Shown in pieces: positions 13,898 through 48,896 of a stretch of 64,000 nucleotides of DNA; position 1 is the first letter of the stretch, and the number at the start of each line of letters is the position of its first letter. This DNA comes from an uncultured virus (IMG/VR IMGVR_UViG_3300032334_001399) (taxonomy: Duplodnaviria > Heunggongvirae > Uroviricota > Caudoviricetes), in IMG/VR virus record IMGVR_UViG_3300032334_001399. One strand, given 5' to 3'. The notes below the pieces were generated by a model. The model saw only the letters and a list, made by a program, of their open reading frames with translations, searched no databases and was not told the origin of the DNA. The translations under genes and the position numbers were made by a program.

Positions 13898-14308
13898 ATG
13901 TCAACATTTTCTTTAAAAACCCTACTAGTTCCTTCAAAGCCGCTTGAAGTCGAGTATCCCGGAATGCCTGATTTTAAAATTCAGATTGCATTTTTATCTC
14001 GTGAAACTCTGCAAACAATTCGCAAAAAATCAACAAAAACCGTATTTAAAAATCGTCAACCTGTTGAAGAAATGAATGACGATCTTTTCCTAGAATTATA
14101 TGTCAAGGCCAGCGTAAAAGGTTGGACTGGACTTAAACTCAAGTATCTAGAGCAACTAGCACCTGTAGATCTTAGTGGTCAAGATGCAGATGCAGAACTT
14201 GAGTACAACGAAGAAAATGCACTGCAACTAATGAAAAGTTCCAGTAACTTTGACGCATTTATTAGCGAACAGGTAACAGACTTGGGAAACTTTTCTACGA
14301 GCAAGTAA
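13898..14308 (+). CDS. Tail assembly chaperone (gpG-like)
   Basis: Between tail tube and tape measure; VKGWTGL motif; ends over a slippery heptamer. Confidence 0.85.
   Translation: MSTFSLKTLLVPSKPLEVEYPGMPDFKIQIAFLSRETLQTIRKKSTKTVFKNRQPVEEMNDDLFLELYVKASVKGWTGLKLKYLEQLAPVDLSGQDADAELEYNEENALQLMKSSSNFDAFISEQVTDLGNFSTSK
14284..14290 (+). other. Programmed -1 ribosomal frameshift site G GGA AAC (tail chaperone G/GT)
   Basis: X XXY YYZ heptamer in the correct frame; the -1 frame is stop-free from 14284 into ORF 14359..14679. Confidence 0.85.
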
Positions 14309-14358
14309 ATAGTATAAATAGTAGTCTTAATATCTACTATCAAAATGCTGAACTTAGT

Positions 14359-14679
14359 ATGACTAAGGATAAGTATTTTGAAATGTGTGAAATGATGGGT
14401 TCTGAACCCGTTGATTCAGAAATACCTATTGAAATAGAAGATTTTCCAGAGTTAGTAATACAGTGTTTTTTAATTTATAGAATACTGCCCGATATATGGG
14501 ATACTATGAATGGTAGCTATCTAGGTAAAGACTACAGTTTAGTATTTAATTTATTTAAGTTATACGGCCTAGATGAATCTGAGCACTTGCTTTCAATCAA
14601 TTTTTTACAAGAAATGGACACTTGTAGAGGTAAAGTTATTGCTGAAAAAATAAAAGCAAAAATGGACAAAAAGCCCTAG
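14359..14679 (+). CDS. Tail assembly chaperone C-terminal part (gpT-like; probably made as a roughly 260-aa fusion)
   Basis: In the -1 frame of the upstream chaperone; no clear SD. Confidence 0.8.
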   Translation: MTKDKYFEMCEMMGSEPVDSEIPIEIEDFPELVIQCFLIYRILPDIWDTMNGSYLGKDYSLVFNLFKLYGLDESEHLLSINFLQEMDTCRGKVIAEKIKAKMDKKP

Positions 14680-17800: not shown

Positions 17801-20800
17801 AAAAGATACTGCACAACAAGTTATTGACAGTTCTAAGTCTACTCCTGCACAAATAGCTGCTGCTAAAGCAACTGTTGAAAAGGCAGGATTTAAACAGGAA
17901 ATTATTGGCTCTGCTACTCCTCAAGCTACATCTAATAAATTTGCTACAAGCGGAAACGAACTTCAAAGAGATGCCGCTAAAGAGGCTCAAAGTTCTGTAA
18001 AAGTATTAGTTGCTGGTCAAAATACCCTTAATGAACTTAAAGCTAGTGGAGCAGCTATTGATATACGTGCAGCTATTGAAACTGCACGAGCTCGCGGAAA
18101 AGCTGCAGCCGATCAAAAACGTCAAATAAATGCTTCATTACAAGAACAAGTAAAACAACTAGACGTAACTGAAAAATTAAACGGAACTTTAACAGCTGCG
18201 CAGTTTGCACAAAAACAAACTCTACAAACTCAAATTAGGCAAAATGAAAGTGCAGCAATATTGCTGGGCTTACAAACTGAGATTAAAGCGTTAGAATCTA
18301 CTAAAGTACAAGACAGTGATCAAGCACGTAAAAAAGACGAACTTGCTGCTAAACGAGCTGAACTAGGCAGACTACAAAGTGCTGAAAGTGGTAAAGCCAG
18401 CGTTCAAACTGAAGAGCAAAAGCTACAGTTAATGGAACAGCAGCTTAAAAATATTGAGTTACAATATCGTATAAAAACAGCAGATCGTGACGAGGAGTTT
18501 AAGTCTGCAGAAAGTATCTTGCAACTAGAGGCTCGTAGAACAAGCCTACAAGAAGAAATTTTAAATGCTTCACAAAGTATGGGTTTTATTCTACAAAAAG
18601 AATTTTTAACTCAAAAAGAACTAATTGATCTTAGAAAACTTGATAATAGCTATGCTCAAGATAAATTAAACACAATAAACAAGGCTAATCAAGAATTAGA
18701 TTTACAGCAAAAAATTATTGCTAGTGCTAATGAAAAACTTAAAGTTGCACCAGCTAATGCAGAGGCATCGGCTGATAAAGCGCGTGCTGAAAAAGCTCAA
18801 ACAAGAATTAACCAAACACTTCAAGGCACTTTAGCTATAATTGAACAGGAAAGAGTTGCTAGAGAAAAGAATATTAAACTAGCTGCTGATTTAGCTAAAT
18901 TTGAAGCTGGAACAGCAGAAATAGCAAAAGAAAAATTAACTATTCTTGATATGCAGATTGAAAAAGAAACCCTTTTACGCGACATTGCTAAATCTAAAAT
19001 AGACTTAGACTCAGCTACTCTAGAACGTAAAAAAGATACGCTGTTAATTACTCAGTCACAGTATTTATTAGAAAAAGGTATTATTGAGCAAAAACAATTA
19101 CAATCTAATGCTGATGATAAAATTGCTAATGCAGAGTCTGCGGCCGCTAAAAAGAGAGTTGAATTAGAGAAAAATCTAGCTGATGCTAGAAAACGCGCCG
19201 AATTAGTTAGACAAAATCAACCTTTAGAAACACAAATAGATGAATTTACTGGCACACAAACATTTGGTCCACCAAGTGCTGCGCTACAAGCAGCAGAATT
19301 AGCAGTAAAGTCACTTGAAGCACAAACTGAAAATTTGGAGGCTAATCTTAAAAATCAAGTAGACACTATTCGCGGCATTGTAAAGCAAGAAAAAGAACGA
19401 GCACTAGTTAATTCTCAACTAGCTGTATTTATTGAAAGACAAAATGAAGAGTATAAGCGACAAAAAGATCTTAGAGACGTAGAAGCACTACAACTACAAC
19501 TAATAAGCAATACAGAACAAAGTAAGTTAACTTTACAATCAACTTACCTAGAAGGCAGAAAATCAATAGGATTTATACTTGACGCAGAATATCAAAAACA
19601 AAAAGGCTTACTAGACTTAGAAAAATCTAAGGCAGATAAGATTATTCAACAAAATAACTTAAAAAAGACCGCTGCAGAGCAAGCTGACACAGATAAGAAA
19701 AATCTTGAATTAGCACAAGAGCGTTTAAGAATTGCTAATGCTAGTGCTCAACGTGAACTTGATGAAAAAAATAAGCTATTATTTGGCCAAGGACTACAGT
19801 TTGAATCAACACAACCTACTAGTAATAAAACTCAGGCACAGATAACAGCAGAACAAGATTTAGCTACTGCAACAGCAACTCAAGCTGCTAATAAAGCAAT
19901 TTCAGACGAAAAACAAGCTGCACTTGATAGGGAAGCTGCAGCTCGTGAAAAAATAATAAGTTTACAAGCTAGACAAAATGTATTGCAGGCTGAGCAAACT
20001 GAGTTAATGAAAAAAGTTGGTGCTGCAACTGAAACACTTAATGCGCTATTTGCTGGTATGGGTGGAAATACCCCTCAAATTGCTAAATCAATTGGTGATA
20101 TAGGTACAGCTATTATATCTAATAGAAAAGAACAAGAGATTTTAAATAACAAACGCGAATCAGAAGTTGAAATCGCAAAATCTTCTAGCGATACTCAAGG
20201 CGAGTACTTAGAAAAATTAGGCGGTATTAACAAAAAGTTTGCCAAAGAACAGCAAAAATTAGATGTAGATACTGCAATGAAAAGTGCTGGTGCTGCTAAA
20301 ATGATGTTTAAAGAAAAAACAGCTGCTTATAAAGTATTTGCTGCTTTTGAAAAAGCAATGATGGTAGTTAAGCTAGCTACTTTAGCTGCAGAAATTTCAG
20401 GAGAACTTGGTCTTACTGCAGTAAGCGTAGCTGCAAGTGGAGCACGTGCTGGTGCTAAAGGTACTGAATCTATTGTTAATGCAATGAAAGATTTACCCTT
20501 TCCTATTAGTTTAGCGGCTGGTGCTGCTGTAGCTGCAATAGTAGCTTCACTATTAGGCAGTGCATTTGCCAAAAAACCAACTGGTTTTGGAGGTGTTACT
20601 GCAGCTCAGCGTCAAGAAACCCAAGGCACTGCTATGGGGTATAATGCTGAAACTGGTGAAAAAATACAAGTTCGTCGTGGTGTATTTGGTGATGAAAATG
20701 CAAAAAGTGAATCTATTAACAATTCATTAAAACTAATTGCTGCAAATAGCGTAGACGGTTTAGATTATGATAATAAGATGCTTAATGCATTAAATAACTT

Positions 20801-22841
20801 AAAAGATGCATTAACACAATCTTCACAAGCACTTTTTGGTATTAAAGGTTTGCGTGCTGGTAGTATGTTTGGTACTCAAGAAGGTACTAATACTAGTGGT
20901 GGTTTTTTAGGAATTGGTGGATTATTTAGCAGTTCAACAACTCGTAGTATTGTGGACAGCGGATTACAATTAAAAGGTACTTTTTTAGAGCTTGCTAGAA
21001 CTGGTGGTGGTTTGATTAATACTTTTGAAGTAGTAAGTACGACTACTAAAAATAGTGGATTTTTAGGTCTAGGCGGTAGTACTAAAACTAGTCAGTCAAC
21101 AAACTTTAGAGATTTAGGTATTACAGACCCTAAAGCTGAAGCATCTTTACGAGCTGCTTTTGGTTATGCTGCTGATTTAATATCTAGTGTTGGTGAACAG
21201 GCCGGCAAACTTCCACAAGAAATTGAAACCGCTATGAGTAACGCCAAAATAGACGAATTAGTCTCTTTACGTGGTTTAACTGGTGAAGACTTTATTAAAC
21301 AACTAGAAGCCGTAGTAGGTTCAGTACTAGACGATACTGCCCTAGTACTATTTAGCGAGTTTGAAAAATTTGCTAAATTTGGTGAGGGTATGCTAGAAAC
21401 TGTGGTTCGTGTAGTAGATACCAATACCAAGGTTAATCAAGCTATTAAAAATATTGGTACTAGTGTTGCTGGTCAACTTACAGAAACTTTTACTAAATCA
21501 TTTTTTGGATGGACATATAGCACCGGAGTTATTACTACCACTTACGATAAACTAACTAATGATATAACTGAAGCACTAGTAAAAGCTGCCGGTGGTTTAG
21601 ATAAGTTTTTAGATAAAGTAGAGGGTTTTAGATCAAACTTTTTAACTGAACAGGAGCGTTTAGCGCCAATTGCTCAAGCGTATCGCAAAGGTTTAACTGA
21701 CTTAGGTTATAGCGCAGATATTAGTCGTGATCAACTTAAACAGTTAATACAAAACTTTAACCTATTTGATCCTGCTGCTGGGCGTGCTGGTAAAAGTGCA
21801 GAACAAACTTATGTAGCACTACTTGATATTGCAGATGGTTTTGATAAAGTAGCAGATGCTGCTGAAGCTGCTGCTAAAAAAGTCAGCGATGAGCGTGAAG
21901 GGCTACAACGTAAACTAGATGAATTATTAATGTCTAATACACAGTTACGTGAATTAGATATTCAAAAAATAGATATTACAAATCGTGCACTTCAACGTCA
22001 AATCTGGGCACAGCAAGATGTACAAACCGCAGCTAAAGCACTACAAACTAGATTAAGTGATGTTACTAAAACTATTAATGGTCAAATTACTAGTTTAACA
22101 GATTACCGTCAATCATTAATGGTTGGTGATAAATCTACACTTACACAAATTGAGCAGTATCAACAAGCTAAACAAAACCTAACAGAATTATTTAGAACAG
22201 CTAATGATTCTACAGCAACTGATGAAGTACGTAATGTTGCACTAGGTAAAATACAAGGTGCTAGTGATCAGGTACTTGGACTATCTCGTCAACTATACGC
22301 CAGTGGTGCACAGTACAGCGCAGATCAAGCAACAGTTATTGGTATCTTAGATGCTACTAAAGCTGACCTAGAAAAACGCAAAACTGATGCACAACTACAA
22401 TTAACACAACTACAAAATAGCAATAGTTTCTTGGAGAATATTCAAGCCAATACAAAATCTACCATGGATTTGTTGGCAGAGTTCTTAGCAGCTCAATCAG
22501 TGTATACTGCAGCAAGTAATCAACCAGGTGCTAGTCGTGCAAGTTTTGCTGTGGGTACAAACTACGTGCCACACGACATGACTGCTGACATTCACCGCGG
22601 TGAACGCATTATACCTGCTGCTGATAATGTTACACTAATTGCTAATAACAAAGAAATGTTACAAGAAATTCGTCAATTAAATCAGCGAATTGTTAATCTA
22701 GAACAAGCAATTGTTGAAGGAAATATGATTAATGCAGCTGCAACTGATCGTAACACTGATGCAATTGTTGTAGCAATTGAGTCTGGTACAGACACTACAC
22801 TACAATTTAATAGACTACAAAAGAAGGGTACAATTAAATGA
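14817..22841 (+). CDS. Tape measure protein (2674 aa)
   Basis: Follows the chaperones; N-terminal SARDFA...LYATFAANLYAV resembles T5 pb2; long Ala/Gln/Lys/Glu-rich helical body; C-terminal FAVGTNYVPHDM...IHRGERIIP. Confidence 0.92.
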   Translation: MATENTTNHIVNVTDEGTTDKVIKKIGTLLSKVEAVQAAASKINMGSTAQATTQTSTPKGYSAASASIPSSGTAGSRAAAQSAKPSGMETQQYNALRGTAGVTGASARDFAKQSEGMGGLVRLYATFAANLYAVTAAFNGLKTAMDTTNMIRGLDQLGASSGVALGSLSKQLLEVTQGALSMRESMKVTAQVTSAGLGSQAVLKLGEAGTKIAQALGLDAADSITRLTRAVTKLEPELLDELGIFVKIDDVVQKYALSVGKTSAQVTEFERRQAFLNAVIDQSKSKFGDIAVDVNPYNQLAASLANVGQKIAEVINTAIGPLVSLLASSPTALYTTVAAISALLVKQAVPAIGDFRNSLRASVAEAADFAKRKAEDAVAAEAARAKQIEDKVRSSADKQVKIVEDAEAKIDALKDPAKKKGGLLAKVAKADAGEIEDKGYIQKLRDKAAAEEKKGRTESAQSHREYATALEGHVAAEKELFRVQAEARAAAEKDPSLLSTRGQAIKSSLDSQLQLTKANIIANAGYAGSIDSLSGAWSGLKKEIKDANLTGFTKATTTLQGGFAILTGKISTAVSAFGTWGAALAAGIEIAALLSSWISKNYQEMVKFDQSMDQLKATTKNTAAVLEKFSQIDPLGKLAVTSTLARATALNELTQGVEKTIDALLTVDKASNAWDRFWDGAFSVVGKDLKSTNSREIGVAIAESIALADTGPAKDAYIAKIKEITGGKGTTAAGFVEFADTSNADKYKDAVKKITEAQKDFNKSQQESASRLQAVQDSFKNTNKAYSELAQSLSGSTPLSKFAEQIQTSAFTLTDSLKSPEQSIKTIIGLLNNPTEAGFLSKESYDRLMASSEEIRNVYKEIQFQEATIREKQAKLADPSIGGVERADIQDVIKRAEEQIRKLQASAVTIASPIVKALSEDNFRIAGQALAQETAASLNKASETIRKSYGSLFTGERAVSFEQDIAKKDLAVKVQGIETTLELIKSNIELKLAIEKDTAQQVIDSSKSTPAQIAAAKATVEKAGFKQEIIGSATPQATSNKFATSGNELQRDAAKEAQSSVKVLVAGQNTLNELKASGAAIDIRAAIETARARGKAAADQKRQINASLQEQVKQLDVTEKLNGTLTAAQFAQKQTLQTQIRQNESAAILLGLQTEIKALESTKVQDSDQARKKDELAAKRAELGRLQSAESGKASVQTEEQKLQLMEQQLKNIELQYRIKTADRDEEFKSAESILQLEARRTSLQEEILNASQSMGFILQKEFLTQKELIDLRKLDNSYAQDKLNTINKANQELDLQQKIIASANEKLKVAPANAEASADKARAEKAQTRINQTLQGTLAIIEQERVAREKNIKLAADLAKFEAGTAEIAKEKLTILDMQIEKETLLRDIAKSKIDLDSATLERKKDTLLITQSQYLLEKGIIEQKQLQSNADDKIANAESAAAKKRVELEKNLADARKRAELVRQNQPLETQIDEFTGTQTFGPPSAALQAAELAVKSLEAQTENLEANLKNQVDTIRGIVKQEKERALVNSQLAVFIERQNEEYKRQKDLRDVEALQLQLISNTEQSKLTLQSTYLEGRKSIGFILDAEYQKQKGLLDLEKSKADKIIQQNNLKKTAAEQADTDKKNLELAQERLRIANASAQRELDEKNKLLFGQGLQFESTQPTSNKTQAQITAEQDLATATATQAANKAISDEKQAALDREAAAREKIISLQARQNVLQAEQTELMKKVGAATETLNALFAGMGGNTPQIAKSIGDIGTAIISNRKEQEILNNKRESEVEIAKSSSDTQGEYLEKLGGINKKFAKEQQKLDVDTAMKSAGAAKMMFKEKTAAYKVFAAFEKAMMVVKLATLAAEISGELGLTAVSVAASGARAGAKGTESIVNAMKDLPFPISLAAGAAVAAIVASLLGSAFAKKPTGFGGVTAAQRQETQGTAMGYNAETGEKIQVRRGVFGDENAKSESINNSLKLIAANSVDGLDYDNKMLNALNNLKDALTQSSQALFGIKGLRAGSMFGTQEGTNTSGGFLGIGGLFSSSTTRSIVDSGLQLKGTFLELARTGGGLINTFEVVSTTTKNSGFLGLGGSTKTSQSTNFRDLGITDPKAEASLRAAFGYAADLISSVGEQAGKLPQEIETAMSNAKIDELVSLRGLTGEDFIKQLEAVVGSVLDDTALVLFSEFEKFAKFGEGMLETVVRVVDTNTKVNQAIKNIGTSVAGQLTETFTKSFFGWTYSTGVITTTYDKLTNDITEALVKAAGGLDKFLDKVEGFRSNFLTEQERLAPIAQAYRKGLTDLGYSADISRDQLKQLIQNFNLFDPAAGRAGKSAEQTYVALLDIADGFDKVADAAEAAAKKVSDEREGLQRKLDELLMSNTQLRELDIQKIDITNRALQRQIWAQQDVQTAAKALQTRLSDVTKTINGQITSLTDYRQSLMVGDKSTLTQIEQYQQAKQNLTELFRTANDSTATDEVRNVALGKIQGASDQVLGLSRQLYASGAQYSADQATVIGILDATKADLEKRKTDAQLQLTQLQNSNSFLENIQANTKSTMDLLAEFLAAQSVYTAASNQPGASRASFAVGTNYVPHDMTADIHRGERIIPAADNVTLIANNKEMLQEIRQLNQRIVNLEQAIVEGNMINAAATDRNTDAIVVAIESGTDTTLQFNRLQKKGTIK

Positions 22842-38232: not shown

Positions 38233-39489
38233 ATGGCAACAATTGTTACAAACATTACTGGGGCTACTGCCGTTAATCGTCCCCTTACTAATACTGAACT
38301 TGATAATAATTTTATCAATTTAAATACTGCAATAACTAGTTTTGCAGAAACTGATACACTAGCTACAGTCACTGGTCGCGGAGCAACCACATCTACAGAT
38401 ATTACTCTTGGAAATAGCGTAGCTACTAGCATTACAAATTTTGGTGGTACAACCGCTAATTACTTGCAAACGTCTGCAAATGGTAGTCTCTATGTAAGAA
38501 CTAAAGATCAAACTACTGTTTCATCTAAAGTTTTATATTTACAAACTGGTAATAATACGCTTAGTGGATCAAATACTGGTAATATTAGTATTAAAACAGG
38601 TAATGCTACTGGCGGTGGCGGAGCATTTGCAGGTGATATTAGTATATCACCTGGATCTGGTGATACTGACGGGGCAATAATTACAATAACTGGTGGTCAA
38701 TCTACTGCTGGCACTACATCAACTGGTGGTAGTGTTACAATTAAAGGTGGTGCTAGTGGTACTACAAGTAGTACCACTGCTATTGGTGGAACCCTTTATA
38801 TTTATGGAGGTGAAGTTACCAGTGCTAATAATTTTTCTAAAACTACTGGATCTGTATACATTGACGGTGGCGGTGCTCAAGGTTTAGGTACTATTACATA
38901 TGGTAGTGTTAATATTGGCACTAGTAGTTCCGGCAGTACTAGTGCAACTTCTACAGTTAATATTGGTAATTCAGCAAATACTACTGTTATTAATGGTACG
39001 GTTAAATTACCTAATGTAGGAACTTCTGGTTTTGTTAAACTTGGTACAGGAGGACAACTTTCTGCTGATACTACCAGTTATCTTACTACTAATAGTGCAT
39101 TAGGTACGCCAGCCTCAGGTACACTCTCTAGTTGTACAGTTGATGGCACTAATCCAGTAGGTTATTTAAATATTCCTCAAAATAGTCAATCAGCTGCATA
39201 CACAACAGTATTAAGCGATGCCGGTAAACATATTTATCATCCAGCTGCAGATACTAATGCTAGAACTTATACTATTGCTGCTAATGCTTCAGTAGCTTAT
39301 CCAATTGGAACTGTAATTGCTTTTGTTAATATGACTTCTCAAACAGTTACTATTGCTATTAATAGTGATACTTTGTATTTAGGTAATACAGGTCTAACCG
39401 GTAGTCGTAGTTTAGCGCAGTATGGTGTTGCAAATGCTTTAAAAATTACTAGTACTAGTTGGATTATTACTGGGACGGGACTTACATGA
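38233..39489 (+). CDS. Tail fibre-like protein, Gly/Thr-rich
   Basis: PLTNTELDNNF N-terminus, repeated I.I.GG strands, C-terminal GYLNIPQN...LKITSTSWIITG. Confidence 0.65.
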   Translation: MATIVTNITGATAVNRPLTNTELDNNFINLNTAITSFAETDTLATVTGRGATTSTDITLGNSVATSITNFGGTTANYLQTSANGSLYVRTKDQTTVSSKVLYLQTGNNTLSGSNTGNISIKTGNATGGGGAFAGDISISPGSGDTDGAIITITGGQSTAGTTSTGGSVTIKGGASGTTSSTTAIGGTLYIYGGEVTSANNFSKTTGSVYIDGGGAQGLGTITYGSVNIGTSSSGSTSATSTVNIGNSANTTVINGTVKLPNVGTSGFVKLGTGGQLSADTTSYLTTNSALGTPASGTLSSCTVDGTNPVGYLNIPQNSQSAAYTTVLSDAGKHIYHPAADTNARTYTIAANASVAYPIGTVIAFVNMTSQTVTIAINSDTLYLGNTGLTGSRSLAQYGVANALKITSTSWIITGTGLT

Positions 39490-42400
39490 GCGGGTTTCTT
39501 AGCGCATTTGTTGGTGGAAGTTATGGTGCTAAACCTGATGCACCTACTATTGGTACTGCAACTGCAACTGGTACAACTACTGCTACTGTTTCATATAGTG
39601 CCCCTGCTAGTAATGGTGGGGTAGCAATTACTAGTTATACTGCAACATCTAATCCTGGCGGAATTACAGGTACACTAAGTCAAGCTGGAAATGGTACAAT
39701 TACTATTAGTGGCCTAACTGCTGGCACTGCATATACATTTACAGTTACAGCAACTAATTCAGTAGGCACTAGTTCAGCAAGTTCAGCAAGTAATAGTATT
39801 ACTACTTATAGTGTTCCTGTAAATACAGTTGCGCCAGCAGTTACAGGTACAGCATGGGTAGGACAAACACTTAGTTGCACTACTGGTACTTGGACAGGTA
39901 TACCAGCACCTTCATATACTTATCAATGGTTTCGTGGTGCAAGCAGTATTAGTGGAGCAGCTAGTAGTACATATACCATTGTTTCTGCTGACATTGGTAA
40001 TACTTTATATTGTAGAGTAACAGCTACTAATGCTGCTGCAAGTACTAATGCTAATTCTAATACTACTGCTACAGTTATAGGTGTATCTGATGCTCCTACT
40101 ATTGGTACTGCTACAGTAACAGGAACTGGTAGCGCTACCGTATCTTATACTGCACCTGCAAGCAATAATGGCTCAGCTATTACTAGCTATACAGCAGTAA
40201 GTAGTCCTGGTGGTATTACTGGTACATTAAGTACTGCTGCATCAGGTACTATTACAGTTAGTGGATTAAGTTCAAATACTGCTTATACGTTTACTGTGTA
40301 TGCTACTAATACTGCTGGCAATAGTCTAAGTAGTGCAGCTAGTAATAACATTACTACTTATAGTGTACCTAGTAATACAGTAGCACCAGCGGTTAGTGGT
40401 ACAACTTATTACGGATACACGCTTAGTTGTACTACTGGTACATGGACTGGTAATCCCGCAAGTTTTAGTTATAGCTATCAATGGATACGTGGTGGATCAA
40501 CTAATATTGGAAGTAATTCTAATACATATACTCTTGTAGCCGCCGATGTAGGCAATACTATTAGTTGTACGGTAACAGCTACTAATACTGGTGGTAGTAC
40601 TTCAGCAAGTTCTAATAGTAGTGGAACAGTTGTAGCAGTTGCACCAAATGCACCTACTATTGGTACTGCTACTGCTTCAGGTTTAACAACCGCTACACTT
40701 ACATTCACTGAATCTACTGATAATGGTGGATCGGCTATTACTAGCCACTTTGTGTTTAGTAATCCTGCTGTTAATGCTGGCCAAATAGTTGGAAATTCTC
40801 CAGTTACGGTTACGGGATTATCACCAGGAACTAGTTATACTTTTACTGTTGCTACAAACAATGGTGTTGGAACCAGCTCAACAAGTACTGCAAGTAATAG
40901 TATTACTACTTATAGTGTACCTAGTAATACAGCAGCACCAGCAATTGGTGGAGCAACATATGTTGGTCAAGCATTAAGTTGTAGTACAGGTACTTGGACA
41001 GGTAATCCAGCTAGTTTTAGTTATAGTTATCAATGGAAACGCGCTGGATCTACCAATATTGGCACTAATTCTTCTTCATATACGCTTGTGTCCGCTGATT
41101 TAGGTAATGCAATTAGTTGTACAGTAACAGCTACTAATAGTGGTGGTAGTACTTCGGCTAATTCTAACTCTACAGCTTCAGTTACTACTACGGCAGGTGC
41201 TCCTACTATTGGTACTGCTACAGTAACAGGAACTGATAGCGCTACCGTATCTTATACTGCACCTGCAAGTAATGGTGGTAATACTATTACTAGTTATGTT
41301 GCTGTATCTAGTCCAGGTAATATTACTGGCACATTAAGTACTGCTGGAAATGGTACTATTACAGTTAGTGGGTTAAGTTCAAATACTGCATACACATTTA
41401 CTGTTTATGCAGTTAATGCTGCTGGTAATAGTTCAAGTAGTTCAGCAAGTAATAGTATTACTACTTATAGTATACCTGCTAATACAGCAGCACCAGTAGT
41501 TAGTGGTACAACTAGTTTTGGTAGTACACTTAGCTGTACTACTGGTACTTGGACAGGTAATCCAGCAAGTTTTAGTTATGCTTATCAATGGCGACGTAGC
41601 GGAAGTAATATTAGTGGAGCTAATAGTAGTTCATATACCTTAGTATCTGCAGACGTAGGAACTACGCTTAATTGTGTAGTAGCAGCTACTAATAGTGGTG
41701 GAACAAGTGAAAGTGCGTCTAATACTACTGCTGCAATTACAGCAACTATACCTGGTACTCCTACTATTGGTACTGCTACCTCAACGGGTCAAACAACTGC
41801 AACAGTAGCATTTACCGCACCAGCTAGTAATGGTGGTTCAACTATTATTAGTTATACTGCCACCAGTAGTCCTGGTGGTCGTACTGGCACATTAAGTCAA
41901 GCTGGAAGCGGTACTATTACAATTACTGGACTAACTTCTGGAACAGCTTATACATTTACTGTATACGCGACTAATGCTATTGGTAATAGTTCTTCAAGTG
42001 CTGCAAGTAATAGCATTACAACTACTGTTGCAGCGCCTACGTATTCTTCTGGGCTTAGTATTAGTGGTAATGCATGGGTTGGACAAACTCTTAGTGCAAT
42101 TGGTGGTAGTTGGACAAACTCACCTACGGGATATACCTATCAATGGATACGTGGTGTTTCAGATATTAGTGGTGCAACAGGAAGTCAATATGTTGTTACT
42201 GCTACTGACTTAGGCAATACCCTTGCTGTTAGAGTAACTGCTAGTAATGCTGGTGGTAGTAATTCAGCTACTTCTAGTAACACAGCTACTGTTATTACTG
42301 TTCCGGGCGCTCCTACTATTGGTACTGCTAGTTCAACACAAACAACTGGTGCTGCAGTTACTTTTACAGCTCCTGGAAGTAATGGTGGTTCAGCTATTAC

Positions 42401-44660
42401 TAGTTATACAGCAATAGCTAGCCCCGGTGGAGCATCGCAATCTGCTGTAGCTAGCCCAATTACTGTTAGTGGGCTTAGTCCCGGAACAGCTTATACATTT
42501 ACTGTGTATGCAACTAATGCTGCTGGTAATAGTACAAGTAGTTCAGCAAGTAATAGCGTTACAACTTATCGATTACCATATTATACTACTGCTCCAACAA
42601 TTAGTGGTACACAGTATGTTGGTCAATCAATTAGTTTGAATATTGGTAGTTGGAGCGGTAATCCAGCAAGTTTTACATATGGTTATCAATGGCAACGTAA
42701 CGGAACTAATATTAGTGGAGCTACTAGTATTTCATATATTATTACTAGTACAGATAATGGAAATACTTTAAGTTGTTATTTAACTGTTCTAAATTCAGCA
42801 GGAACTACTAATTATACGGCTACAGCTGGAAGTGCTGTTGCGTATCCACCACCAGTTAACCTTAGCCTTCCAACTATTAGTAATACACCTGCTTATGTTG
42901 GTGTTACACTTGGTATTGGTACTGGTTCTTGGCAAGATGCATCAACTTATGCTTATCAATGGTTACGTGCTGGAATTAACATTACTGGAGCAACTACCAA
43001 TTCATATACTGTTACTAGTACAGACATAGGATATGCTCTTTCTTGTAGAGTAACAGCAACGGGAAGCGGCGGTAGTACTTCAGCTACTAGTGCTTCTACA
43101 AATACGGTTACTGTTGCACCTCCAACTAATACTGCAGCTCCAACAATTTCTGGTACTGCACAAGTTGGTCAAGTTTTAACAGCTTCTGTAGGTACTTGGA
43201 CAGGCTCACCCTCATATGGTTATCAATGGTTACGTGCTGGAACTAGTATTAGTGGAGCAACAGGTTTTCAATACACTCTTACTTCTACAGATGTAGGTAA
43301 TGGTATTGCTTGTACAATAACAGCTACTAATGCTGGTGGTAGTACCTCAGCTACTAGTGCCTATACAACCACAGTTACGTACCCAGCTCCAGTTAATCTT
43401 TCTGCTCCTGTTGTTTCTATTTCGCAACCCTATGTTGGAGATAATATTTCCGCTAGTAGTGGATCATGGCAAGATGCGTCATCATACGCATATCAATGGT
43501 TACGTGCTGGAACTAGTATTAGTGGAGCAACAAGCCAAGGCTATACAGTTACTAGTGCAGATGTAGGCAACGGTCTTGCTTGCAGCGTAACAGCTACAGG
43601 AACTGGAGGAAGTACATCTGTTACTACCAGCTATACAAGTGCAGTAATTCAACAAGCTATAGCATTAACAGGCTCAGCCGCTCCTTATATTAGTGCGTAC
43701 CCTTGGTCTGGTGGATTTGGAACTAAATATAATGACCCAACTACAACAGCTGGTGGAGTAACTTATGCAATAGATTTTAATCCTCAAGGAACAGTTATTG
43801 CAACTGCAAATAGTACTAGCCCTGCTATTAATGCATGGCTTTGGTCTAACAGCGGGTTTGGTACAAAATTTGGTAATCCTAGTGTTTCATCAGGTACAAT
43901 TAATTATGGTGTAGATTTTGATCCAACAGGAACCACCGTTGTATCTAGTAGCAGTTCTACTCCATACGTTCATGCATATCCTTGGTCTAGCAGTGGATTT
44001 GGTACAAGATTCAGTAGCCCAGCATCAACACCAGGAAATTTTTCAGTTGGAGGAGTAGCTTTTAATCCTAGTTCAACAGCAATCGCGGTGGGTTTTCAAA
44101 CTACTGTTCCATATATTGCTGCATATCCATGGACTAATGGTGTAGGATGGGGTACTAGATATGCAGACCCAACTACTGGACCAGCTACTACTACGTATAA
44201 AGTAACATTTAATCCTCAAGGAACAGCTATTGCAAGTGCAAACAGCACCAGTAGTCCATTTATCAATGTATGGGCTTGGTCTAGTGGTTTTGGTACAAAA
44301 TTTGCTGATCCAGCAACGCTTATGTCAGGCCAAACATTTGGTGTAGCATTTAGCCCTTCTGGTTTAACAATAGCAGGCGTAAGTACCAGTACTGCAAATA
44401 TTCATACATGGCCTTGGTCTAGCGGTGGGTTTGGCACTAAATATGCTAATCCTAGTACTTTGCCTACGGGATCTGGAGCCAGAGCAGTAACATTTAATGT
44501 AACATCAACTGTTATTGCAAGTACTTGTACAACAAGTCCTTATATCAATGCATATCAATGGATTGACGGGTTTGGTTTTGGTGTTAAATATGCCGATCCT
44601 ACTACATTACCAACGGCTGTTGGTACTTCATACGGTAGTAGTTTAAAATTCTTCCCCTAA
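39486..44660 (+). CDS. Large adhesin-like virion protein: 6 FN3 plus 9 Ig-like repeats and a 7-bladed beta-propeller-like C-terminus
   Basis: ATG 39486 overlaps the upstream stop; six P.APTIGTA units; nine P.N..AP.(V/I)SG...Y.YQW.R units; seven PY..AYPW..GFGTK(Y/F)..P units. Confidence 0.8.
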   Translation: MSGFLSAFVGGSYGAKPDAPTIGTATATGTTTATVSYSAPASNGGVAITSYTATSNPGGITGTLSQAGNGTITISGLTAGTAYTFTVTATNSVGTSSASSASNSITTYSVPVNTVAPAVTGTAWVGQTLSCTTGTWTGIPAPSYTYQWFRGASSISGAASSTYTIVSADIGNTLYCRVTATNAAASTNANSNTTATVIGVSDAPTIGTATVTGTGSATVSYTAPASNNGSAITSYTAVSSPGGITGTLSTAASGTITVSGLSSNTAYTFTVYATNTAGNSLSSAASNNITTYSVPSNTVAPAVSGTTYYGYTLSCTTGTWTGNPASFSYSYQWIRGGSTNIGSNSNTYTLVAADVGNTISCTVTATNTGGSTSASSNSSGTVVAVAPNAPTIGTATASGLTTATLTFTESTDNGGSAITSHFVFSNPAVNAGQIVGNSPVTVTGLSPGTSYTFTVATNNGVGTSSTSTASNSITTYSVPSNTAAPAIGGATYVGQALSCSTGTWTGNPASFSYSYQWKRAGSTNIGTNSSSYTLVSADLGNAISCTVTATNSGGSTSANSNSTASVTTTAGAPTIGTATVTGTDSATVSYTAPASNGGNTITSYVAVSSPGNITGTLSTAGNGTITVSGLSSNTAYTFTVYAVNAAGNSSSSSASNSITTYSIPANTAAPVVSGTTSFGSTLSCTTGTWTGNPASFSYAYQWRRSGSNISGANSSSYTLVSADVGTTLNCVVAATNSGGTSESASNTTAAITATIPGTPTIGTATSTGQTTATVAFTAPASNGGSTIISYTATSSPGGRTGTLSQAGSGTITITGLTSGTAYTFTVYATNAIGNSSSSAASNSITTTVAAPTYSSGLSISGNAWVGQTLSAIGGSWTNSPTGYTYQWIRGVSDISGATGSQYVVTATDLGNTLAVRVTASNAGGSNSATSSNTATVITVPGAPTIGTASSTQTTGAAVTFTAPGSNGGSAITSYTAIASPGGASQSAVASPITVSGLSPGTAYTFTVYATNAAGNSTSSSASNSVTTYRLPYYTTAPTISGTQYVGQSISLNIGSWSGNPASFTYGYQWQRNGTNISGATSISYIITSTDNGNTLSCYLTVLNSAGTTNYTATAGSAVAYPPPVNLSLPTISNTPAYVGVTLGIGTGSWQDASTYAYQWLRAGINITGATTNSYTVTSTDIGYALSCRVTATGSGGSTSATSASTNTVTVAPPTNTAAPTISGTAQVGQVLTASVGTWTGSPSYGYQWLRAGTSISGATGFQYTLTSTDVGNGIACTITATNAGGSTSATSAYTTTVTYPAPVNLSAPVVSISQPYVGDNISASSGSWQDASSYAYQWLRAGTSISGATSQGYTVTSADVGNGLACSVTATGTGGSTSVTTSYTSAVIQQAIALTGSAAPYISAYPWSGGFGTKYNDPTTTAGGVTYAIDFNPQGTVIATANSTSPAINAWLWSNSGFGTKFGNPSVSSGTINYGVDFDPTGTTVVSSSSSTPYVHAYPWSSSGFGTRFSSPASTPGNFSVGGVAFNPSSTAIAVGFQTTVPYIAAYPWTNGVGWGTRYADPTTGPATTTYKVTFNPQGTAIASANSTSSPFINVWAWSSGFGTKFADPATLMSGQTFGVAFSPSGLTIAGVSTSTANIHTWPWSSGGFGTKYANPSTLPTGSGARAVTFNVTSTVIASTCTTSPYINAYQWIDGFGFGVKYADPTTLPTAVGTSYGSSLKFFP

Positions 44661-44672
44661 TTTTTTTTTATT

Positions 44673-45044
44673 ATGATTACTAATCAAGAACACTTAAATA
44701 ACCTTATTGTTGCTGCATTTCATCGCGAAATGGAGTTTTATCAATATCAAATGAATATTAATAACTATACTATGATGTTAAGTACACTACCTCAGGATGA
44801 TTGGCCTGAAACATTGCAAGAATACAAAACTGTATCAATTGATACACTTCCAGAAACATTAAGTGACGAAATGGTAAACACAATTTCTGATTATCAATAC
44901 CGTGACAGAATTCGTGGACTTTTGCGTACTGAAAAGGTTGAACAGGGTAAATCTGGTAAAATACGAGATGTAATTAAAATTCAAATTGGCCCGGATTATG
45001 ATAGTCTTGTAGCAGCATACAAAAATTCACAAACTGCTAGTTAA
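44673..45044 (+). CDS. Hypothetical protein (possible chaperone of the preceding adhesin)
   Basis: 123-aa ORF directly downstream. Confidence 0.6.
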   Translation: MITNQEHLNNLIVAAFHREMEFYQYQMNINNYTMMLSTLPQDDWPETLQEYKTVSIDTLPETLSDEMVNTISDYQYRDRIRGLLRTEKVEQGKSGKIRDVIKIQIGPDYDSLVAAYKNSQTAS

Positions 45045-45067
45045 AATTCTATAAACAAAAAGCTACT

Positions 45068-45430
45068 ATGATTACAGATACTAAGCTATTTATTCTTGCT
45101 GTTTTTGCTGCTATTTTATTAATGGGTGGCATATATTTTCATCGTACAACCCTAGAGGCTGGCAAACAGCAAGCTACGCTTGAATGCATGCAACAACGTA
45201 GCAAAGAAGCTGAACTTGCCAGCAATAAAATTGCACAACTAGAACAAGATCTACAACAGATTAATTTGGCTAGTCAACAACGGCAAAAAGATTTAAACAA
45301 ACATATAAAACAAATTACAGATAAACTTAAAAATCAACCTGTTGCTGTTATAGAAGGTGGTAAATGCGTTCCTGCCACAATTTTAATTGACAGTGTTAAC
45401 GAGGCTATTAATAAGGCTAATCCACAATGA
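45068..45430 (+). CDS. Rz: Inner-membrane spanin (Rz-like)
   Basis: N-terminal TM, coiled coil, two Cys; overlaps a lipoprotein gene. Confidence 0.75.
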   Translation: MITDTKLFILAVFAAILLMGGIYFHRTTLEAGKQQATLECMQQRSKEAELASNKIAQLEQDLQQINLASQQRQKDLNKHIKQITDKLKNQPVAVIEGGKCVPATILIDSVNEAINKANPQ

Positions 45431-45705
45431 AAAACGTATTAATTGTTTTAAGTGCATTAGCCATAAGTGGTTGCGGTAGTTTTAATAAATTACCGCAATC
45501 ACCACCCACTGCAGCTAAACAAACCAAGGTAGTAGTAGAACCACAACTACTACTACCTTGCGAACGCTTGCCTAATTTAGTGGCAAACACATACGAACAA
45601 GTAGCTGAACACTACTTAACTGTCATTAACCTATACGGTCAATGCGCTCTTAAACAACTAGAAAGTATCGAAGCTATTCGCAAACTTTCAAATCTGGACA
45701 AATAA
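45427..45705 (+). CDS. Rz1: Outer-membrane spanin lipoprotein (Rz1-like)
   Basis: Signal peptide with lipobox LAISG-C; Pro-rich segment, LLLPCE and YGQC. Confidence 0.78.
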   Translation: MKNVLIVLSALAISGCGSFNKLPQSPPTAAKQTKVVVEPQLLLPCERLPNLVANTYEQVAEHYLTVINLYGQCALKQLESIEAIRKLSNLDK

Positions 45706-45706
45706 A

Positions 45707-46126
45707 ATGAAAGATCACTTACGTTTTCGTAACGTTTTTATGATTGGTGGTACACTCATTGTTATGGTATACTTATACCTTAGTGACCCTAACGGCGGCA
45801 ACATGACTATTCCGTTTTTAGCTAAACTGGCTACTCCAGTAGTAGCAGTGTGGTTTGCGCATCTTGCGCGACGTGCACTATTTGACTACGCAGATATGGA
45901 ACAATTGATGAAAAAAGCTCGCGAAACCGCCACTGGCGCAGGCTTGACTTTTTTAGGTCTTTGTTTAATTATCTACGGGTTGCTTAGTCTTTTCGGTTCG
46001 CAAGTATATGCACAACCAGTAGCCACCTATATTCCTGAACAAGCACACCAACATTTACCTACACTACAACTGGAAAAAAACAAGGTTTGGGCTACACACC
46101 CAAAGCCCAATACCTTGCTAGTCTAA
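45707..46126 (+). CDS. Three-TM holin-like protein; probable N-terminal part of a membrane-anchored endolysin
   Basis: Three hydrophobic segments; soluble tail ...VWATHPK runs into the overlap with the transglycosylase ORF. Confidence 0.65.
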   Translation: MKDHLRFRNVFMIGGTLIVMVYLYLSDPNGGNMTIPFLAKLATPVVAVWFAHLARRALFDYADMEQLMKKARETATGAGLTFLGLCLIIYGLLSLFGSQVYAQPVATYIPEQAHQHLPTLQLEKNKVWATHPKPNTLLV

Positions 46127-46662
46127 TAGAGCACGAGTCTTGTATCTCGTTAAAACACTCACGTTGTTGGAATCCTAAGTCTAGGTTAAAAACTCCGCGT
46201 GAGGAAGGTGCAGGACTTGGACAGATTACCAGGGCTTTTAAACCAGATGGTGCTATTAGATTTGATGCTCTTTCAGACCTAAAGCATAAATATCCTCGAG
46301 AACTTTACGATCTTAACTGGCAAACGGTTTATGATAGGCCAGATCTACAAATTCGTGCACTAGCATTAATGATGCGTGATAACTATCAACAATTTGATAA
46401 ATATGTACCAGACAAACGTGAAGCATATGCATTTGCAGATGCTGCCTATAATGGCGGTTTAGGTGGAGTAGATCATGAACGTAGGGCTTGTAAATTAGCA
46501 AGCTGGTGTGATCCTAACAGGTGGTTTGATAATGTAGAAAAGCTGTGCTTAAAGTCTAAGGCGGCATTATACGGTAATCGTAGTGCTTGTGATATTAATC
46601 GTCACCATGTTCAAGATGTAATTAATAATCGTAGTGCTAAATATGCACCGTATTTAAATTAG
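46087..46662 (+). CDS. Lytic transglycosylase (SLT-like) endolysin domain, -1 frame relative to the upstream ORF
   Basis: IEHES catalytic Glu motif, GLGQIT, AAYNGG; six Cys; weak TTG start with no usable SD. Confidence 0.8.
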   Translation: MGYTPKAQYLASLIEHESCISLKHSRCWNPKSRLKTPREEGAGLGQITRAFKPDGAIRFDALSDLKHKYPRELYDLNWQTVYDRPDLQIRALALMMRDNYQQFDKYVPDKREAYAFADAAYNGGLGGVDHERRACKLASWCDPNRWFDNVEKLCLKSKAALYGNRSACDINRHHVQDVINNRSAKYAPYLN

Positions 46663-46670
46663 GAGTTAGT

Positions 46671-48896
46671 ATGGCAAATACTGCGATATCAGCACTACCC
46701 ACAGTTACTACACCACTTGCTGGTACTGAAGTTTTGCCCATTGTACAAAGCAGTAGTACTAAACGCGTAACTATTTCGCAAATTGCTAGTTATATTGGTA
46801 GTTATACACTACCCACAGCTAGTGCTAGTGTACTAGGTGGTATTAAAGTAGGCACTGGACTTAGTATTGACGGCAGTAGTATATTAAGTGTAACTGGTTT
46901 AACTTCTACTAGCTATACAGGCCAGTCAATTAATTTAACAATTAAACCAGCTCAACAAACTGGTGCACAAAGCGGCGGAACCTTATATCTACAGGGAGCC
47001 GATGTTACAAATGCTAGTGCTAATACGTATTCTGGTAGAGTTTATATATCAGGCGGTGCTACTTCAGCAGGTATAGCAACTGGCGGTCCAATTACAATTA
47101 TTGGTGGTAGCTCTACAAATACTGTAGGTGGTTCAATTAATATTACTGGTGGTCAAGGCGGTGATGTTGCCAATGGCGGATCAGTTATTATAACTTCTGG
47201 TGCTGATGGTGGTAATGGTGGTTCAACTGGAGACATAACATTAACAGTTAATGGTGGAACTATTGGTAGTGGTAATTTGTATTTAACAAATGTAAATACA
47301 AACGGCACATCCTATGTTCGTTTAACTAGCGGTGGTCTTATTAATATAGCTTCAGCAGTTGCTGGTAGTATTAATAATATGACCGTTGGTATTACTACGC
47401 CACTAGCTGCAAAATTTACTACTATTACTGCTACTGGTAATGTTACATTAAGCAGTACTCTAACAGCCGGTGGTGGAGTAGGCACTAATGGTCAAGTATT
47501 AACTTCAACTGCTAGTGGTGTGCAATGGTCTACGGTTAGCAGTGGTGCTAGTGCTACCACTACTATTCAAAATAAAAGTGCGGCATATACAGTAGTTGCT
47601 GGTGATTTAGGCACAATTATTAATTGTACTAGTGGTACATTTACTGTGTCATTAACTGCTGCTGCTACCCTAGGTGCTGGATTTACGGTTACTATTTGGA
47701 ATACTTCTACTACATCAACCGATGCAATTACAATAGATCCAAATGGATCCGAAACAATTGACGGAAAAACTACACGAATTCTTCGTCGCGGCGAAGGTAT
47801 GCAAATTGTATGTGATGGCACAAACTGGCAATCTGGCAGTAAAAAGGCAATGCTGCTTTATGCAGAAAATATGGATCCTGTTAATAGTACACTTCCTCAA
47901 GCTATTGGAGATCGTGCTTTTGCTATTGGTCCAAATAATACTGCAAATGGTATATATTCTTCTGTTATAGGATATAATAATACTGCTAATGGTACTGCTG
48001 ATTTTGTAGCAGGAACTTCTTCTTCTACAGGCTCAGGTGGTTATGCTATTGCTATTAATGGTAATGCAAATTCAGGAAATTCTACAGCAATAGGTCATAA
48101 TTCTGGAGTAAATAGAGCCATTGCTGCAGGTTCCGGAGCAGTAGCTCTTGGTGGTTCTTATGCTAGTGGAAATGATAGTTTTGCTGCTGGTATTGGCAAT
48201 AATTCAAGTAGTTATGGTGCAAAAAATACTAATGCAGTTGCTTTAGGTAATAGTGCAGTTGTTACAGGGTTGTGGGCAGTAGCAATAGGGTATCTTGCTT
48301 CAGCAAGTGGAAATGTATCTATTGCACTTGGACGAGAGACAGAAGCTTCAGCTTTATCTTCTATAGCATTAAATGGAGGCAAAGCTTCTGCTGAACGATC
48401 AATGGCAGCAGGTAGAAATGCTAAAGCAGAACTAGTAGGCAAATATGCTTATTCCGGAGAAGCAGATTTTGGAGCAACTAGTATATATAGCCAACAAGGC
48501 ACATATGTTTTAATATGCCCAACTACTAATGCAACTCCAGTTGTTTTAACAACTAATAATACTACTGCAAGCGCTATCAACCAAATAATTTTGCAAAATA
48601 ATAGTGCATATGCTTTTACAGGAATTATTATTGCTCGTCAACAAGCTGCTGCTGGCAATGATTTTGCTGCTTGGGAAATTAAGGGTGGCATTGTTCGTGG
48701 TGCAGGGGCAGGCACAACTGCTTTAGGCACATATAATATTAACGTATTAAGTAAATCTGCTGGTGCAGTAACTTGGACTATAGCACTATCAGCCGATACC
48801 GCAAACGGTGGATTAGCCATTACTGTAACTGGAGCAGCTGCCGTAAATATTCGTTGGGTTGCAACTGTACAAACCAGTGAGGTTACTTATGCATAA
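46671..48896 (+). CDS. Tail fibre with YadA-head-like repeats
   Basis: ISALPTVTTP N-terminus, LPTASASVLGGIKVG, Gly-rich strands, repeated AFAIG/STAIG/AVALG/SIALG. Confidence 0.7.
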   Translation: MANTAISALPTVTTPLAGTEVLPIVQSSSTKRVTISQIASYIGSYTLPTASASVLGGIKVGTGLSIDGSSILSVTGLTSTSYTGQSINLTIKPAQQTGAQSGGTLYLQGADVTNASANTYSGRVYISGGATSAGIATGGPITIIGGSSTNTVGGSINITGGQGGDVANGGSVIITSGADGGNGGSTGDITLTVNGGTIGSGNLYLTNVNTNGTSYVRLTSGGLINIASAVAGSINNMTVGITTPLAAKFTTITATGNVTLSSTLTAGGGVGTNGQVLTSTASGVQWSTVSSGASATTTIQNKSAAYTVVAGDLGTIINCTSGTFTVSLTAAATLGAGFTVTIWNTSTTSTDAITIDPNGSETIDGKTTRILRRGEGMQIVCDGTNWQSGSKKAMLLYAENMDPVNSTLPQAIGDRAFAIGPNNTANGIYSSVIGYNNTANGTADFVAGTSSSTGSGGYAIAINGNANSGNSTAIGHNSGVNRAIAAGSGAVALGGSYASGNDSFAAGIGNNSSSYGAKNTNAVALGNSAVVTGLWAVAIGYLASASGNVSIALGRETEASALSSIALNGGKASAERSMAAGRNAKAELVGKYAYSGEADFGATSIYSQQGTYVLICPTTNATPVVLTTNNTTASAINQIILQNNSAYAFTGIIIARQQAAAGNDFAAWEIKGGIVRGAGAGTTALGTYNINVLSKSAGAVTWTIALSADTANGGLAITVTGAAAVNIRWVATVQTSEVTYA

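Follow-up and report, generated by a model that had tools for sequence, protein, structure and literature searches.

The lysis locus of an uncultured virus of the Caudoviricetes (IMG/VR record IMGVR_UViG_3300032334_001399) raises the question of how its endolysin is made. The stretch of DNA analysed, referred to here as the window, is 64,000 nucleotides in length. It contains an open reading frame (ORF) of 139 codons, ORF1, at positions 45707–46126, which encodes a small membrane protein. ORF1 overlaps a second ORF that lies in the −1 frame, runs to position 46662, and encodes a lytic-transglycosylase domain. These and the other features of the lysis cassette described below are on the forward (+) strand. 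The two ORFs could be one gene decoded in two ways, two separate genes, or a single gene broken by the loss of a nucleotide. The comparison of related loci makes it highly probable that programmed −1 frameshifting at the heptamer C_CCA_AAG (46099–46105) yields a 139-amino-acid holin-like protein and a 318-amino-acid membrane-tethered endolysin at a set ratio. This would be a new use of a known recoding mechanism, and one that the comparative evidence supports well.

A preliminary description, made from the letters of the window alone, had noted the overlap of the two frames, and a check of the sequence agrees with its account of the junction. The −1 frame is open from position 46039, following a TGA at 46036–46038. 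Two heptamers of the X_XXY_YYZ form are in register with the ORF1 codons, as described: A_AAA_AAC at 46075–46081 and C_CCA_AAG at 46099–46105. The second is composed of the third base of His131, Pro132, and Lys133. A shift at this heptamer joins ORF1 through Lys133 to the GCC codon that begins at 46105 in the −1 frame, and the 133 and 185 residues add up to the 318-residue product. The start candidate of the −1 ORF is a TTG, and it lacks a usable Shine-Dalgarno sequence; the only purine-rich run upstream is an AAGG that ends 1 nucleotide before the TTG. The three hydrophobic stretches, the V-Y-A/Q-P sequence that follows them, and the six cysteines of the enzyme part are all present. The frame switch of homology to single-ORF relatives falls between Lys133 and the next codon.

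A lone heptamer in frame is no more than chance would give. By our own estimate, a framed X_XXY_YYZ heptamer is expected at about 1/256 per codon, or about 0.5 per 139-codon ORF. What chance does not account for is that the second heptamer is conserved precisely at the junction. The first heptamer, A_AAA_AAC, was considered as a functional slip site and rejected. It is not conserved (AAAAAAC in two and AAAAAAT in four of the 45 split loci described below), and a shift there would lose the invariant Trp128 and Pro132.

Proteins matching ORF1 number 228 within a length range of 76–244 amino acids, and the detailed figures given here come from the 120 of these that were listed. The 120 homologues are 128–149 amino acids in length and 61–94% identical to ORF1, and 75 of them are exactly 139 amino acids long. 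The residues at the junction are HPK in 114, HPN in five, and NPK in one. The tail that follows the junction has six residues in 107.

At the DNA level, 78 related loci were fetched from metagenome and viral collections with an alignment query. A query of viral contigs with a single protein, the natural in-frame relative P0002, returned no matches. In 45 distinct loci, the window's own counted, the enzyme domain is shifted by −1 from the frame of the membrane module. The seven bases at their junction are CCCAAAG in 37, CCCAAAA in six, CCCTTTT in one (L029), and ACCTTTT in one (L023), so that a framed X_XXY_YYZ heptamer is found in 44 of the 45. The preliminary description had proposed a comparison with related phages as a check, and both the split and C_CCA_AAR are kept at the junction in 43 of the 45. 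One more CCCAAAG junction, beyond the 45, is present in a locus from a genome collection (L084). The replacement of C_CCA_AAG by C_CCT_TTT in L029 and by A_CCT_TTT in L023 suggests that the slip site has turned over in these two loci while the frameshift was kept.

The silent positions of the heptamer are fixed. All 30 loci of the gapless alignment have CCA at Pro132, and this is the sole column with 100% third-base identity among 32 conserved four-fold-degenerate columns. Other invariant proline positions use two to four codons in the same loci. Lys133 is AAG in all 30, while other lysine codons vary. His131 is likewise CAC in all 30; by contrast, His52 splits 17/13 and His116 splits 14/14. 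Synonymous divergence among the loci is large, with dS (synonymous substitutions per site) from 0.7 to saturation. With dS this high, relatedness does not explain the conservation of the heptamer.

Purifying selection acts on the −1 part. Its ratio of nonsynonymous to synonymous substitution (dN/dS) against the window is 0.080–0.174, with dS of 0.70–2.79, in the 25 computable comparisons. These are the gapless and unsaturated ones; four further comparisons were saturated, and 14 of unequal length were skipped. From the heptamer to the end of ORF1, the −1-frame residues are conserved in the in-frame relatives as well, and the zero-frame tail is variable. This tail (46106–46126) is composed of six codons and a TAA stop in the window and lies within the codons that specify L-I-E in the −1 frame, immediately upstream of the putative catalytic motif. 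It varies in both sequence and length among the 120 listed homologues, where it has 0, 3, 6, 7, or 15 residues.

The −1-frame continuation (46105–46662) contains 185 codons and a stop, with an E-x-E-S-C motif and the six cysteines. It matches the PHROG family phrog_669, 'endolysin', with an E-value of 5.9e-16. The Pfam SLT family (PF01464) scores 12.9 bits against a cut-off of 21.3, and 0 of 48 members of the enzyme family match it at E ≤ 0.01. A sequence search of solved structures with the enzyme part returned only chance-level matches to zinc metalloproteases (E 0.05–0.06). The predicted structure of the domain has a pLDDT (predicted local distance difference test) of 89.6. Its best structural match by VIA-align is MltF, with Z of 14.0 and a root-mean-square deviation of 2.2–2.8 over 142–146 residues. 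Slt (Z 13.2), MltC (12.9), Slt70 (12.8), and MltE (11.6) follow, with MltD also present, and the top 30 rows are all lytic transglycosylases. Foldseek E-values for the same model are weak, at about 1e-2. Among 48 sequences E11, E13, and C15 are invariant and S14 is nearly so (at least 90%). On the model, the domain is predicted to have the GH23-type lytic transglycosylase fold.

The position of the slip site within this fold can be seen in P0002. In the model of this protein (pLDDT 90.1), a short linker connects three long helices to the enzyme domain, and the slip site corresponds to a loop between the first enzyme helix (residues 111–127, pLDDT about 98) and the helix that carries E-x-E-S (residues 135–145). 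Because the slip site is inside the enzyme domain, the enzyme cannot be whole without the shift.

The zero-frame product of ORF1 (45707–46126, 139 amino acids) comprises three membrane helices, a linker, the first enzyme-domain helix, and the six-residue out-of-frame tail. A Kyte-Doolittle scan places its hydrophobic stretches at residues 7–26, 35–51, and 74–101. Helix 1 spans approximately residues 9–26 (45731–45784) and corresponds to a helix at 7–26 in the P0002 model. Helix 2 spans approximately residues 35–51 (45809–45859; 34–61 in the model). Helix 3 is glycine-rich and has its core at residues 80–97 (45944–45997; 75–100 in the model), and it ends 36 codons before the slip-site lysine. 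Basic residues are found at the N terminus and in the loop at 55–79. By the positive-inside rule, this pattern suggests an N terminus in the cytoplasm and a C terminus in the periplasm. Downstream of helix 3, at 46004–46015, the sequence V-Y-A followed by Q (Q-P) forms a putative signal-peptidase-like cleavage site, and the surrounding 'LFGSQVYAQ' is almost invariant among the 120 listed homologues.

Two further observations concern this ORF. An internal start at Met64 would yield a classical signal peptide, and it was rejected as a general mechanism since Met64 is replaced in several in-frame relatives. Codons 71–78 (45917–45940), just before helix 3, show unusually high silent-site conservation, for example GCA in 27/29, ACT in 24/27, GGC in 25/30, and GCC in 24/29 of the 30 loci. 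The window sequence at 45917–45940 can form a small CGCC/GGCG hairpin.

Frameshifting at C_CCA_AAG, which the preliminary description had put forward as a candidate, gains support from the conservation of the heptamer, from selection on the −1 part, and from independent contigs. The proposed decoding would proceed as follows. Most ribosomes would read ORF1 to its stop and make the 139-amino-acid three-helix inner-membrane protein. A fraction would slip by −1 with CCA and AAG of the heptamer in the P and A sites. The tRNA-Pro and tRNA-Lys would re-pair from CCA-AAG to CCC-AAA, and translation would go on at GCC. The less frequent long product, of 318 amino acids, would be the same three-helix module bearing a periplasmic GH23-type lytic transglycosylase. 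The short form would be the holin or its partner, and the long form would be membrane-tethered and possibly released after V-Y-A. What the sequences show is the conserved site, the arrangement of the frames, selection on both parts, and the fold of the enzyme. The ribosomal nature of the slippage, its efficiency, the topology, the holin role, and tethering as opposed to cleavage after V-Y-A are what we infer. Since the frameshift would be the only route to the enzyme-bearing form, slip efficiency would set the ratio of membrane module to enzyme form. No phage tRNA genes are present, and thus no phage tRNA-Lys bears on the slippage.

Several results weigh against this account. ORF1 matched no family in Pfam or PHROG, which weakens the label 'holin', and alignment of its profile with four annotated YuA-type holins by hhalign gave a weak match with a probability of 23.8%. 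The scan for further lysins covered the 64-kb window of a phage genome of about 100 kb. Locus L023 has no canonical heptamer at its junction, only a T_TTT tetramer. In the tree of the loci, at least three changes between the −1 and in-frame states are needed, and the split layout is not a single clade. RNAalifold predicted 0 pairs from 41 sequences covering −6 to +110, and the window's own RNA fold is no better than shuffles (minimum free energy z = 0.51). These folding analyses agree with the preliminary description, in which no convincing downstream stimulator was seen. Upstream of the heptamer, no conserved Shine-Dalgarno-like element is visible in the locus alignment. According to extracts of PMC4066793, heptamers without a stimulator gave 2.1–10 times a background of 0.055% in E. 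coli reporters. By analogy, slippage in this gene could be very inefficient if no other stimulator is at work.

The heptamer itself is a strong one in the bacterial data. Extracts of PMC5009743 and PMC4066793 place C_CCA_AAG among the most shift-prone heptamers in E. coli, and in combination with the IS3 pseudoknot it gave 54% frameshifting there. A stimulator is not obligatory, since one proven insertion sequence frameshift cluster has no established stimulator (PMC4066793, same extracts). The nascent protein could take this part. Helix 3 would be pulled into the membrane while C_CCA_AAG is decoded, and the force would promote the slip. This idea is rather unlikely as it stands, and it is drawn by analogy from a LepB reporter described in extracts of a 2025 preprint (PMC12776465). 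In that reporter, translocation of a nascent transmembrane domain was by itself enough to induce 46–52% frameshifting with the slippery site 45 codons after the helix, and no product was detectable at 35 or 55 codons. That in vitro system, a reticulocyte lysate with microsomes, is eukaryotic, and the reporter RNA had no stable structure (PMC12776465).

In the family studied here, helix 3 and the slip-site lysine are 36 residues apart, counted from the helix end, in 119 of the 120 short proteins listed. Of 41 distinct split loci, 36 have this same spacing, two have 37, and the values 31, 32, and 33 occur once each. The in-frame loci also fall at 31–37 where the spacing is measurable, and the split and in-frame states are not separated by it. 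Nascent-chain stimulation is therefore offered as a hypothesis.

A somewhat unlikely alternative accepts the frameshift and differs in what the short form does. The three-helix module would be a mere export or anchor device, the 139-amino-acid form would be a by-product or a regulator (antiholin-like or a dominant partner), and the true holin would be encoded elsewhere. Both the missing family match and the weak profile match noted above fit this, and the in-frame relatives make the fusion only. The predicted topology is also unlike that of lambda S. What speaks for a holin is first the gene order in relatives. Locus L083 and the YuA-type phages encode a three-helix protein of about 107–111 amino acids in the holin position, directly upstream of a homologous secreted endolysin. 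The stand-alone three-helix protein of L083, itself uncharacterised, is homologous to ORF1 (37% over residues 5–84, E 5e-10). The window contains no small membrane protein beside the spanins other than ORF1, and the short form has a near-fixed length across the 228 protein clusters. The placement of ORF1 is itself holin-like, being that of a small three-helix protein in a lysis cassette, after the spanins, and overlapping an endolysin domain. Because the homology to YuA-type holins is only suggestive, the label 'holin-like' is used here.

It is very unlikely that the enzyme is a separate gene. Translation would then be initiated in the −1 frame, at the TTG (46087–46089), at another near-cognate codon, or by termination and reinitiation, and the heptamer would be kept by dual coding. 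Reading H-P-K in the zero frame and P-K in the −1 frame would indeed constrain two silent positions as well, and an NTG stands 12 nucleotides before the heptamer in 25 of 44 loci. This NTG is, however, a by-product of a tryptophan codon without usable Shine-Dalgarno spacing; in the window the TTG consists of the last base of the preceding codon and the TG of TGG (Trp128). From the upstream stop to 60 nucleotides past the heptamer, 15 of the 44 loci contain no ATG, GTG, or TTG in the −1 frame. Seven of the 44 have a −1-frame stop two codons before CCC and still keep the heptamer. Since the −1 frame can be entered only by slippage in some loci, dual coding fails as an explanation there. Separate genes do exist in distant relatives (L083, YuA, Sonora, and Mecenats66), but in these the endolysin has its own ATG and signal peptide. 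ORF1 ends directly ahead of the invariant E-x-E-S motif, and in the window its stop is not followed by a start codon. A start inside the −1 ORF would give a truncated domain without an export signal, because the first enzyme helix (pLDDT 98 in the P0002 model) lies in ORF1.

The preliminary description had regarded an assembly error or the loss of one base pair as equally plausible, and this is rejected. Under such an explanation, a sequencing or assembly error or a recent one-base deletion at 46099–46108 would hide a single ORF of 319 amino acids, or the copy in the window would be a pseudogene. The region is made of short homopolymer runs, and one additional A (CCA AAA GCC) is what sets the in-frame L021 and P0002 apart. 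Against this, an independently built Logan contig of the probable source run shows 0 differences over 45000–47200 at a depth of 33.8. Six contigs of relatives that are about 90% identical bridge the junction with no indel between 45497 and 46144, and around the junction they differ only at 46108 and 46109. These six come from three runs, one from the study of the source and two from other freshwater studies. The same layout recurs in the 45 distinct loci and the 228 protein clusters (JGI, ENA, Logan, and NCBI), at 52–94% identity, with a −1 part under purifying selection and fixed silent sites in the heptamer. The probability left to an error or deletion is very small, and, judged from these sequences, neither an error of sequencing nor a recent mutation accounts for the split.

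A frame change at the RNA level, by transcriptional slippage or editing, is extremely improbable, as transcriptional slippage, a process reviewed in PMC5009743, needs long homopolymer runs and the longest at the site is 3 nucleotides, the X_XXY_YYZ form is in register with the zero frame in 44 of the 45 loci, and the alternative C_CCT_TTT fits tRNA re-pairing and not polymerase slippage.

With −1 frameshifting as the preferred reading of the split loci, the membrane module and the enzyme can be sorted into three arrangements across the wider family. In the first, the genes are separate, and a three-helix protein of about 107–111 amino acids, annotated as a holin, is followed by an endolysin with a signal peptide or a signal-anchor-release (SAR) sequence. 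Examples are Pseudomonas phage YuA, Stenotrophomonas phage Sonora, Morganella phage Mecenats66, and L083. The L083 genes (1498–2524 of that locus) encode 110 and 233 amino acids, the latter a signal-peptide endolysin, and overlap by 8 nucleotides in the unfused state. In the second arrangement the two parts are fused in frame without a heptamer, in more distant relatives with 30–45% identity in the membrane part. The longer homologues of ORF1 are single-ORF fusions in 10 of 10 cases, nine of them 302–319 amino acids in length and one of 528 amino acids with a C-terminal extension. The third arrangement is the frameshifted form, found in a clade that is 52–94% identical to the window.

The heptamer is absent from the in-frame loci apart from L021, where it contains an additional A. 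In the tree, the in-frame L021 and L039 are nested among the split loci. The tree has no reliable root and carries a long-branch warning, and no direction of change is therefore given.

In-frame fused relatives without a heptamer are also present in four loci (L085–L088) on Giesbergeria and Acidovorax contigs (Comamonadaceae), one of them from the isolate Acidovorax sp. GW101-3H11. These loci are probably prophages, and they hint that the wider family has betaproteobacterial hosts. The closest homologue of the enzyme in an isolate, at 57.7% identity, is in Bacillus phage vB_BspM_AgentSmith (locus L001, 1199–3280). In that locus, a putative endonuclease gene lies downstream of a 111-amino-acid N-terminal piece of a second transglycosylase copy and upstream of a full 308-amino-acid transglycosylase with a signal-like N terminus. 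This layout looks like a duplication or split associated with a homing endonuclease.

The split gene is the last of a lysis cassette at 45068–46662, in which the order is inner-membrane spanin (i-spanin), outer-membrane spanin (o-spanin), ORF1, and the −1-frame ORF. The i-spanin (45068–45430) is Rz-like, matches PHROG families phrog_739, phrog_214, and phrog_8821 with E-values of 1.4e-4 to 1.6e-3, and has an N-terminal hydrophobic segment. The o-spanin (45427–45705) is an Rz1/LysC-like lipoprotein with an I-S-G-C lipobox. It matches the Pfam LysC family (PF23793) at 28 bits with a cut-off of 27 (E 2.1e-6) and the PHROG Rz-like spanin family phrog_456 (E 3.2e-6). This is probably a spanin–holin–endolysin cassette, with ORF1 and the −1 ORF forming a last gene that is decoded in two ways.

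The window has a G+C content of about 38% and comes from a freshwater tailed phage with a genome of about 100 kb. Its genes include a terminase, a portal, a protease/capsid protein, a major tail protein, tail chaperones, a tape measure protein of 2674 amino acids, and large fibre-like proteins. The protease and capsid are fused in one 655-amino-acid ORF (8152–10119) that matches head maturation protease and major head protein families. The tape measure gene (14817–22841) is very long. A 1733-amino-acid protein with many Ig/FN3-like repeats (39459–44660) is encoded directly upstream of the lysis cassette, which is located between fibre-like structural genes and not at the genome end.

The tail assembly chaperone pair (13898–14679) has the classical −1 frameshift layout. 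A G_GGA_AAC at 14284–14290 is in register near the end of a 136-amino-acid ORF, and no stop interrupts the −1 frame between this site and the end of a 106-amino-acid ORF. Both ORFs match PHROG tail assembly chaperone families.

The lambda G/GT tail chaperones have this layout. Ribosomes there shift to the −1 frame at a conserved site, a heptamer such as G_GGA_AAG located shortly before a small ORF ends, and a short protein and a version with a C-terminal extension are made in a fixed proportion. The lysis gene resembles this system, and many tail-chaperone frameshifts have no strong RNA stimulator. The G/GT system differs in that it serves tail assembly and not lysis, involves no membrane protein, and adds a second chaperone domain instead of an enzyme.

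The E. coli genes copA and dnaX also use −1 frameshifts on X_XXA_AAG heptamers, and copA encodes a membrane protein as well. The slip site of copA is C_CCA_AAG. The copA frameshift has been confirmed (PMC9548414). In both genes the shifted ribosome ends early and makes a short product, whereas here the shift would make the long, enzyme-bearing product. The copA and dnaX sites also have RNA stimulators, and at the site studied here none was found in the folding analyses.

Among lysis systems, the SAR endolysins with pinholins (P1 Lyz and phage 21 R/S) are alike: there too, as proposed here, export of the muralytic enzyme precedes lysis, and a hydrophobic segment at its N terminus keeps it at the inner membrane. 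Phage Sonora encodes a homologue of the enzyme under the annotation 'SAR endolysin transglycosylase', and its separate holin gene and its spanin genes follow the same order. By analogy with SAR endolysins, the conserved cysteines could allow disulfide control. The difference is that the anchor here would be a whole three-helix module, shared with a separately made short protein and joined to the enzyme by recoding. Lambda S105/S107 is also similar, as one lysis gene gives two membrane proteins whose ratio is set by translation and times lysis. Those forms arise by alternative initiation and are two N-terminal residues apart, whereas the forms here would differ by a 185-residue C-terminal enzyme added by frameshifting.

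An in-frame holin–endolysin fusion of the TpeE family in Clostridium sporogenes (PMC9527704) follows the same logic as the in-frame relatives here, including the prophage-like Acidovorax and Giesbergeria loci. It differs in having an unrelated one-helix holin family, a Gram-positive setting, and a single product, and the word 'frameshift' has 0 occurrences in that paper. Alphavirus 6K/TF and the engineered LepB resemble the present gene in that the slippery heptamer follows a transmembrane helix by a few tens of codons (here 31–37), and they differ in using a eukaryotic translocon. We know of no bacterial or phage case of frameshifting driven by a nascent transmembrane segment.

No paper describing a frameshift that joins a holin or holin-like gene and an endolysin was found in titles, abstract starts, and selected passages, with supplements outside the search. 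The nearest, in extracts of PMC5658483, is a one-sentence note of a putative slippery sequence between an endolysin gene and an internal virion protein gene in Alteromonas phage H4/4. The words 'holin' and 'endolysin' are absent from the first 300,000 characters of the recoding review PMC5009743.

The timing of phage lysis depends on the amounts of holin and endolysin, and the known controls are dual starts, antiholins, and SAR tethering. If the frameshift reading is true, an enzyme made solely as an extension of a holin-like protein would be a new way to fix the ratio of the two and to export the enzyme. Lysis would then join the short list of phage processes, among them the production of tail chaperones and of capsid variants, that use programmed frameshifting. 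In practice, gene-calling programs leave this endolysin split or truncated in the annotations of hundreds of metagenomic phages. The family holds separate genes, an in-frame fusion, and a frameshifted fusion, and is a natural test bed for why recoding evolves. With no visible RNA stimulator and a site that follows a membrane helix, the gene also offers a bacterial test of frameshifting driven by the nascent chain. Should that reading hold, endolysin synthesis would respond to the condition of the host membrane and of the Sec machinery, and the frameshift would be part of the lysis clock. It would be the first bacterial or phage example of recoding driven by membrane insertion.

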